Positions 2,191 to 2,395 of a stretch of 2,395 bases of DNA are shown in pieces; positions within the stretch are counted from its first letter, which is position 1; each line of letters begins with the position of its first letter. The translations under genes were made by a program, and so were the position numbers. The DNA comes from Escherichia coli (GTDB taxonomy: Bacteria > Pseudomonadota > Gammaproteobacteria > Enterobacterales > Enterobacteriaceae), in assembly GCF_003334335.1 (NCBI RefSeq), contig NZ_QOWQ01000088.1, one strand, 5' to 3'. Under the pieces are notes generated by a model. The model worked only from the letters and a program-made list of their open reading frames with translations. It had not been told where the DNA came from and searched no databases.

Positions 2191-2233
2191 CTGATATTTT
2201 GCCGATTTTGTACGTGATGGCAAAGTAAGAAAA

Positions 2234-2257
2234 AACCACCGCCAGGTGGTTTTTTTT
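2234..2257 (+). terminator. Rho-independent terminator (tR'-like, possibly bidirectional)
   Basis: Stem AACCACC (2234-2240) pairs with GGTGGTT (2245-2251) around loop GCCA, followed by a run of eight T (2250-2257). An A-tract (2230-2235) precedes it, so the structure is symmetric and could terminate in both directions. Confidence 0.75.
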
Positions 2258-2380
2258 ATGTCCGAAAATCGCGTCAGTACAGTAAACGCGCTGGTGGCGG
2301 TGAATACCTGTCTTTCAGCTTGCTGGCTTTTTCGACAAGAGTTATTGGTGTGTCACGTTAACCGGAAAAGGGAAAAAGAC

Positions 2381-2395
2381 ATGCTAAAACAGCAG
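2381..2395 (+). CDS. Possible 5' end of the downstream gene (partial, product unknown)
   Basis: ATG at 2381 (MLKQQ...) preceded by the purine-rich AAAAGGGAAAAAG (2365-2377), with GGG about 8 nt upstream. The frame is open to the window end, but only 5 codons are visible. An in-frame ATG at 2258 could extend it, but that stretch is rich in rare codons. Confidence 0.3.

Follow-up and report, generated by a model that had tools for sequence, protein, structure and literature searches.

Genes and control elements at the locus

The stretch of Escherichia coli DNA considered here, hereafter the window, is 2,395 nucleotides long and breaks off within the first codons of a small gene. One of the three genes in the window is a DUF968 gene, another encodes a RusA resolvase (an NCBIfam match), and a Q antiterminator gene of the phage-82 type occupies positions 1479 to 2168 of the plus strand. 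The Q product matches phrog_304, described as 'anti-termination protein Q-like', with E = 4.7e-103, and is 66% identical to the Q protein of phage 82, 63% identical to that of phage 434 and 61% identical to that of Gifsy-1; its counterpart in RefSeq is the CDS at 3580-4269 of the locus designated L001. The RusA stop codon (1484-1486) overlaps the start of Q within the region 1473-1486, with GTG 1473 and ATG 1479 as the two possible start codons, and RefSeq chooses ATG 1479.

Downstream of Q, all on the plus strand, lie a predicted late promoter, an intrinsic terminator, a leader of 123 nucleotides and the start codon, at 2381, of a gene for a 65-aa winged-helix protein. In L001 a holin gene and other late-region genes follow the 65-aa gene on the same strand. 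At least 80% of the length of the last 496 bases of the window is matched in 269 complete E. coli genomes. From its gene content and order, the 3' part of the window appears to be the junction at which a lambda-like E. coli prophage controls its late genes. Shortly after the 65-aa gene, approximately 350 to 700 nt past the end of the window, Rfam recognizes the small RNA STnc100 on the plus strand (L001 4834-5042, 130.6 bits) and an AsxR/AgvB-type anti-sRNA on the minus strand (L001 5046-5098), the AsxR match of 63.0 bits falling exactly on the threshold.

The predicted late promoter and its short transcript

A candidate late promoter pR' spans positions 2152 to 2180 on the plus strand, with a -35 element TTGCAA (2152-2157), a spacer of 17 nt and a -10 element TATGTT (2175-2180), from which transcription would start near 2187. 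This candidate agrees with the consensus at only 8 of 12 positions and is absent from the list returned by the consensus scan; it aligns with TTGCAA-17-TATACT, found at the same place after the Q82-like Q gene of phage 434. Within the region that would be transcribed initially, the -10-like element TGATATTTT (2192-2200, plus strand) is conserved relative to TGGTATGTT of phage 434 and is a candidate site for a sigma70-dependent pause and for the loading of Q, a role suggested by what is established for the pR' promoters of lambdoid phages.

Transcription from this promoter to the terminator described below would yield a short terminated RNA of about 70 nt (2187-2257), and its probable expression in lysogens can be proposed from the arrangement of the elements. 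In the minimum-free-energy fold of positions 2196 to 2395, the 5' part of this RNA forms a hairpin of its own (UUUUGCC...GGCAAAG, 2196-2226, plus strand). Comparable short RNAs arise from the late promoters of lambda (6S RNA) and of phages 21, phi80, 82 and P22. The predicted RNA of the window carries a 5' hairpin in addition to its terminator, and small RNAs of the StxS and IsrK types arise at the same position in other phages. We infer that the promoter is used, that its transcripts are terminated and that read-through depends on Q.

The terminator between Q and the late genes

The terminator occupies positions 2228 to 2257 of the plus strand, with a core stem of CCACC (2236-2240) and GGTGG (2245-2249) closing a GCCA loop, and a run of eight T residues (2250-2257); the extended stem pairs 2228-2240 with 2245-2257. 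The predicted folding energy of the hairpin is -16.7 kcal/mol (z = -5.7), and none of 200 shuffled sequences was equally stable. The consensus scan lists the terminator on both strands, and the element is symmetric by virtue of an upstream A-tract (AAAAAA-stem-TTTTTTTT), so that it could also halt antisense transcription coming from the late region. Among the relatives 45 distinct stem sequences occupy this position, each followed by a run of five to nine T residues, and in the record of phage 434 the equivalent hairpin, followed by TTTTTTTTATGCCCTGA, is annotated as a terminator. An unusually stable GC-rich stem-loop, an adjoining T-run and a hairpin that is kept while its stem changes are what characterize an intrinsic terminator, and its position just downstream of the Q gene, which ends at 2168, with late genes following, is that of a tR'. 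The reading offered here is that 2228-2257 is the tR'-type terminator of a late operon of the Q82 type, at which transcription would end in the absence of Q. Weak Rfam matches over the same positions (Phe_leader, 28 bits; STnc370, 29 bits; RNAI, 20 bits) fall well short of the threshold and are put down to the hairpin.

An ATG on the terminator T-tract

The question that gave rise to this analysis concerns an ATG at 2258-2260 (plus strand), directly 3' of the T-tract. The preliminary description had pointed out that the frame open to the window end begins after the TGA at 2192-2194, that its first ATG, at 2258, is in frame with the ATG at 2381, and that AGGTGG (2244-2249), the 3' arm of the terminator hairpin, lies 8 nt upstream of it in the position of a ribosome-binding site. 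A script check of the window confirmed these coordinates: the two ATG codons are 123 nt apart, or 41 codons, with no stop codon between them, and the T8 run (2250-2257) adjoins the upstream ATG. Further in-frame GTG or TTG codons are present at 2246, 2294, 2300, 2345 and 2348.

AGGTGG would form a duplex of -6.6 kcal/mol with the anti-Shine-Dalgarno sequence, but its likeness to a ribosome-binding site comes solely from its being the G-rich arm of a hairpin, and any terminator whose 5' arm is C-rich should have such a 3' arm. The earlier suggestion that the hairpin would occlude the site is upheld by the prediction, according to which AGGTGG is 10% unpaired and would cost about 18 kcal/mol to open.

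Taken in one sequence alone, the arrangement is a rare coincidence: an ATG immediately after a T-run has a chance of a few percent, its being in frame one of 1/3, and 41 open codons one of about 0.14, that is (61/64)^41. The relatives place it in a different light. Of the 45 distinct terminator stems, 29 have an ATG or GTG immediately behind the T-run, some of them with non-homologous sequence downstream, and the reading frames opened by these codons (at the equivalents of 2250-2260, in loci L004 to L163) run for 2 to 106 codons in varying frames. The frequency exceeds naive chance and is attributed to shared descent of the terminator unit; selection is possible. Together, a T-tract junction that is inherited and a frame that is flipped by indels of a single nucleotide explain the in-frame ATG without function. 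The ATG at 2258 is therefore best regarded as incidental, carried along with the T-tract and placed in frame by a one-nucleotide difference; it is not a conserved start codon.

Is the stretch from 2258 to 2380 coding?

The family used to examine the frame comprised 160 related loci from viral contigs, which yielded 87 distinct sequences with a T-run 80 to 140 nt before the gene. In 28 of these variants 123 nt separate the T-run from the gene's ATG, in 31 the interval is 122 nt, and in the others it lies between 80 and 135 nt. An ATG or GTG after the T-run that is both in frame and open to the gene occurs in only 25 of the 87, and in the remaining 62 a frameshift or a stop codon interrupts the frame that corresponds to the one opened at 2258. 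The in-frame state of the window is due to one extra A, GAAAAT in place of the commoner GAAAT, which opens instead a reading frame of eight codons (MTEIASVQ*). In phage 434 the sequence after the terminator reads ATG CCC TGA, and in PhiR5_1 the ATG after the terminator likewise opens an eight-codon frame. Even in L071, a near-identical locus in which terminator and ATG are the same as in the window, the CGA lying 48 nt ahead of the gene has become TGA (...ACWLF*QELL...), yet the 65-aa reading frame is intact.

The substitution pattern leads to the same conclusion. Among the 25 variants that share the register of the window, leader substitutions are distributed over the three codon positions as 1332:1379:1356, with pN/pS of 0.77, against 297:393:1872 and 0.14 for the gene downstream of 2381. 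Longer gene calls in other genera add residues that are unrelated, or translate the same DNA in another frame (...ELSVCHS..., ...RVICMSRH... and ...QSYLYVT...), three frames in all. Of what would mark an N-terminal coding extension from 2258, namely a kept frame, a third-position bias, similarity of amino acids at a distance and an accessible ribosome-binding site, none was found in these comparisons, the last of them by prediction. On the other side, 33 of the 87 variants, in a set whose members are not independent, have no stop in the frame of 2381 from the T-tract onward, against 6 of the 87 for each of the other frames, and some Klebsiella-type loci (L088, L089) also have a 41-codon in-frame extension. 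PHROG 331 gives the extended protein a higher score than the short form (153 against 126 bits), which says no more than that the long reading frame is often the one called in phage annotation.

The preliminary description had set against a start at 2258 the case of homologues that align from 2381 and show no conservation across 2258-2380. The first part was found, in that the N-termini of the homologues match a start at 2381; the second was not, the DNA of the leader being well conserved. What is conserved from 2258 to 2380 on the plus strand is nucleotides only; neither the reading frame nor the amino acids are kept, and the stretch is an untranslated leader to the gene that comes first behind the terminator, not a protein extension. 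The same description had argued for 2381 from the rare codons between the two ATGs. The codons it named are present (CGA, AGG, CGG, two CTT, TTA and ACA, 7 of 41) and its conclusion is right, but the argument does not carry it, because the same codons make up 7 of 65 in the gene itself (three CTT, two TTA and two ACA), or 11 of 65 when two AGA, a CTA and an ATA are added.

The gene that starts at 2381

The start codon and first five codons (MLKQQ...) of the 65-aa winged-helix protein occupy positions 2381 to 2395 of the plus strand, where the reading frame runs off the window. That this is the real start is agreed by RefSeq, by the broken frames from 2258, by the substitution pattern and by the N-termini of the homologues. 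The RefSeq CDS starts at the position equivalent to 2381 in both L001 and L002, under the names 'hypothetical protein' or 'TrmB family transcriptional regulator'. The protein matches phrog_331, and against Pfam it has only weak winged-helix matches (TrmB, MarR and others), the best being TrmB with E = 0.005. Homologues in Salmonella, Klebsiella, Citrobacter and Buttiauxella are mostly 63 to 65 aa long, and similarity among them begins exactly at MLK/NQQDMTE.

A Shine-Dalgarno sequence, AAGGGA (2368-2373, plus strand), stands 7 nt before this ATG; its duplex with the anti-Shine-Dalgarno sequence is calculated at -5.3 kcal/mol and it is predicted to be 69% unpaired. Among 24 diverse leaders there is hardly any variation in the AAGG core or in the AAAGAC that precedes the ATG. 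The ATG itself is predicted to be paired (probability of being unpaired 0.00), and predicted accessibility alone would not favour 2381. In two viral contigs (L232 and L251) the leader is kept as far as the Shine-Dalgarno site, after which the 65-aa gene is replaced by GGAAAGTTTGAGAAACGCGATCTGG..., apparently at a joint left by recombination or deletion on the ribosome-binding site itself.

Conserved blocks in the leader and their predicted fold

Two blocks of the leader stand out. The box CTTGCTG (2319-2325, plus strand) is invariant and would supply the 5' arm of an outer helix by pairing with CAGCAG(G) at 2390-2396, and the nearly invariant block AGAGTTATTGGTGTGTCA (2338-2355, plus strand) always lies 12 nt after the box, its positions 2345-2354 being predicted to pair with GACATGCTAA (2378-2387). 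Across the 24 diverse leaders the pattern CTTGCTG-N12-AGAGTTAT(C/T)(T/G)GT(A/G)TGTCA is invariant or nearly so, and its spacing is fixed. Blocks of the form CTTGCTG-N12-AGAGTTATNNGTNTGTCA are seen in phages of E. coli, Salmonella and Klebsiella, at 2319-2395 of the window and to about 2396 in L001 (4420-4497).

In the leader alignment, which was confined to homologues of at least 75% protein identity, RNAalifold pairs CUUGCUG with codons 4 to 6 of the gene (CAGCARG) and GURUGUC with GACAUGC, so that the start codon is enclosed and the Shine-Dalgarno sequence lies in the loop. Single-sequence folds of 24 representatives show the same architecture, with a mean z of -2.6 and a probability of the AUG being unpaired that is mostly near 0. 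The predicted pairs are 97.8% compatible across the relatives; a search of the predicted helices for compensatory changes found 0 pairs changed on both sides, and shuffles do as well. In L096 and L109 the box reads CUUGAUG and its partner is shifted to AUCAAG or AUCAAA, a change of register that is suggestive for the fold but probably represents a single event. The AGAGTTAT block is not accounted for by the predicted fold. A stronger proposal, based on this modelling, is that the 62 nt at 2319-2380 and the first codons constitute a conserved cis-regulatory RNA that would hide AUG 2381 while presenting its Shine-Dalgarno sequence in a loop, and that a start codon is kept after the U-tract so that only antiterminated transcripts would load ribosomes able to assist in opening the leader; it is considered unlikely. 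If it were true, the leader would act as a translational check layered on Q antitermination.

Other roles for the conserved blocks were considered. Coding on the minus strand beneath the leader was rejected, as there is no open reading frame with a start codon and the sole open frame lacks ATG, GTG and TTG. A sigma70 promoter within the leader was likewise set aside: TTGCTG-17-TATTGG lacks the essential last T of the -10 element, and the consensus scan lists nothing on the plus strand there. Comparison by eye of the leader blocks with the motifs of sigma54, sigmaE, sigma32, CRP, LexA, DnaA, IHF and CII gave no fit. The sequence GTACRGTAAACRYGCTGG, just after the terminator, was tried as an independent element, and in a scan of viral contigs it occurs almost only with this leader, the exceptions being the phage 434 type, two loci with other sequence in place of the gene from the Shine-Dalgarno site on, and three chance matches.

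Weighing the explanations

It is very probable that the locus is a pR'/tR' junction of the Q82 type followed by an untranslated leader of 123 nt, with translation starting at 2381 and the ATG at 2258 incidental. The predicted pR' directly after Q would make an RNA of about 70 nt that ends at tR' (2228-2257); RNA polymerase modified by Q would read through tR' into the 123-nt untranslated leader; and the read-through transcript would reach the first gene of the late region, from which the 65-aa winged-helix protein would be translated from ATG 2381 behind AAGGGA. The ATG at 2258 would have been inherited with the T-tract, the difference of 1 nt in the A-run (GAAAAT or GAAAT) setting its frame in this lineage. 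The most substantial competing idea grants the leader frame a regulatory role, in which ribosomes entering at 2258 on read-through transcripts would melt the structure at 2319-2396 that hides AUG 2381. It has a precedent in the IsrK-orf45-anrP system, where translation of orf45 switches on anrP (PMC4825925), and it would make sense both of the start codon that follows the T-tract in 29 of the 45 terminator versions and of an AUG 2381 that is predicted to be fully paired. It is nonetheless quite improbable: in most relatives the reading frame stops after 2 to 8 codons, about 100 nt before the structure, and so cannot unfold it; the ribosome-binding site is locked in the hairpin of -16.7 kcal/mol; and the overlap of stop and start that characterizes orf45 and anrP is absent. 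Nor do the short RNA and the leader show a consistent complementarity from one module to the next (z from -3.5 to +1.6); the window reaches 19.4 of the 50 bits required by the isrK model, and the leader of Gifsy-1 is an unrelated RNA of the C4 type.

The two remaining explanations are alternative start sites. Were 2258 the true start in this lineage, the product would be a 106-aa protein whose N-terminal 41 residues preceded the winged-helix domain as a signal or lipoprotein peptide, with LSAC (residues 19-22 of the 106-aa form) as a candidate lipobox, and peptides from MSENRVSTVNALVAVNTCLSACWLFRQELLVCHVNRKREKD would be expected. Such a protein is very improbable, despite a frame that is open and in register, AGGTGG 8 nt upstream, callers of GenBank and metagenome records that give 106-aa versions (P0017 and P0021, one of them named 'lipoprotein'), and a PHROG 331 that includes the extension. 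Selection on the additional codons is near neutral even within the frame-keeping subset (the pN/pS of 0.77 given above), and the near-identical L071 carries a nonsense codon; LSAC derives from the invariant DNA box CTTGCTG and is replaced by FSCW in other in-frame lineages; export of a DNA-binding winged-helix domain as a lipoprotein is implausible; and the ribosome-binding site is buried, while RefSeq places the start at 2381. A start at GTG 2348, giving a 76-aa protein, is scarcely credible. It is annotated in this way in phage PhiR5_1 (PV340545.1) and the GTG is in frame, but the codon is ATG or out of frame in other variants, no Shine-Dalgarno sequence precedes it (the best duplex being -2.4 kcal/mol), the extra residues show no conservation in other genera, and it sits within a conserved nucleotide block that is read in three frames.

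Relation to known late-control systems

The arrangement closely follows lambdoid late control of the phage 82/434 type, sharing with it a gene of the Q82 family (63-66% identity) and a strong intrinsic terminator 60 to 90 nt after Q. The predicted promoter and the candidate -10-like pause element occupy the same place as in phage 434, and late genes follow. The window differs from phage 434 in the sequence of the terminator stem and in the gene behind the terminator, and for the window promoter use, pausing and Q-dependent read-through are predictions.

The Shiga-toxin phages produce StxS, an Hfq-binding small RNA that is a pR' transcript terminated at tR' (PMC7547250). The two RNAs would resemble each other in how they arise in principle, since in each case a late promoter that is active constitutively, with a terminator close behind it, would yield a short RNA in lysogens. 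Whereas StxS is a 258-nt RNA processed to 74 nt, the RNA of the window is predicted to be about 70 nt long and belongs to a different Q/pR' module.

In Gifsy-1 the IsrK-orf45-anrP region has a leader reading frame behind a Q-linked terminator, conserved in nucleotides and not in amino acids, and coupled to the next gene (PMC4825925). The window shares with it a Q82-like Q (61%), a short RNA running to the terminator, a nucleotide-conserved leader containing an open reading frame, and a regulator gene, but it has no stop/start coupling, and the leader of Gifsy-1 is non-homologous, a C4-type antisense RNA (69 bits). Membership of the IsrK family (Rfam RF01394) was rejected for the window, positions 2178-2256 of which score 19.4 bits against the gathering threshold of 50, compared with 79.3 for Gifsy-1. 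Predicted pairing of the short RNA with the leader, whether in trans or in cis, was likewise inconsistent over ten modules (duplex z from -3.5 to +1.6, with -1.2 for the type found in the window). The IsrK/orf45 region of Gifsy-1 (L165 2198-2396) matches the P1/P7-type C4 antisense RNA of Rfam at 69 bits and the a1b1 targets at 48 bits, and on these matches the published IsrK-orf45 system looks like an immunity module of the C4 type.

The long versions of the gene belong with a more familiar kind of error, the over-extended calling of the longest reading frame. The gene is 63 to 65 aa long in RefSeq and 72 to 110 aa long according to other callers; within the protein clusters P0001 to P0120 many GenBank and metagenome records are of the longer kind, one of them named 'lipoprotein' through its LSAC motif. 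The PHROG 331 profile itself has 34 positions (1-34) ahead of the true methionine, a false extension. In the window the false start happens to fall on a terminator T-tract, and for that reason it looks designed.

Meaning for the annotation and control of late genes

The feature is best read as a late terminator of the ordinary sort with an untranslated leader behind it. Its main value is for annotation, in that the frame upstream of 2381, which is not conserved, settles the start of the gene at 2381 against records of up to 110 aa. The analysis also places a pR'/tR' unit of the Q82 type at 2187-2257, and RNAs made by such units are regulators in the Shiga-toxin phages and in Gifsy-1. The conserved blocks of the leader hint modestly that the first gene of the late region may be controlled in translation.
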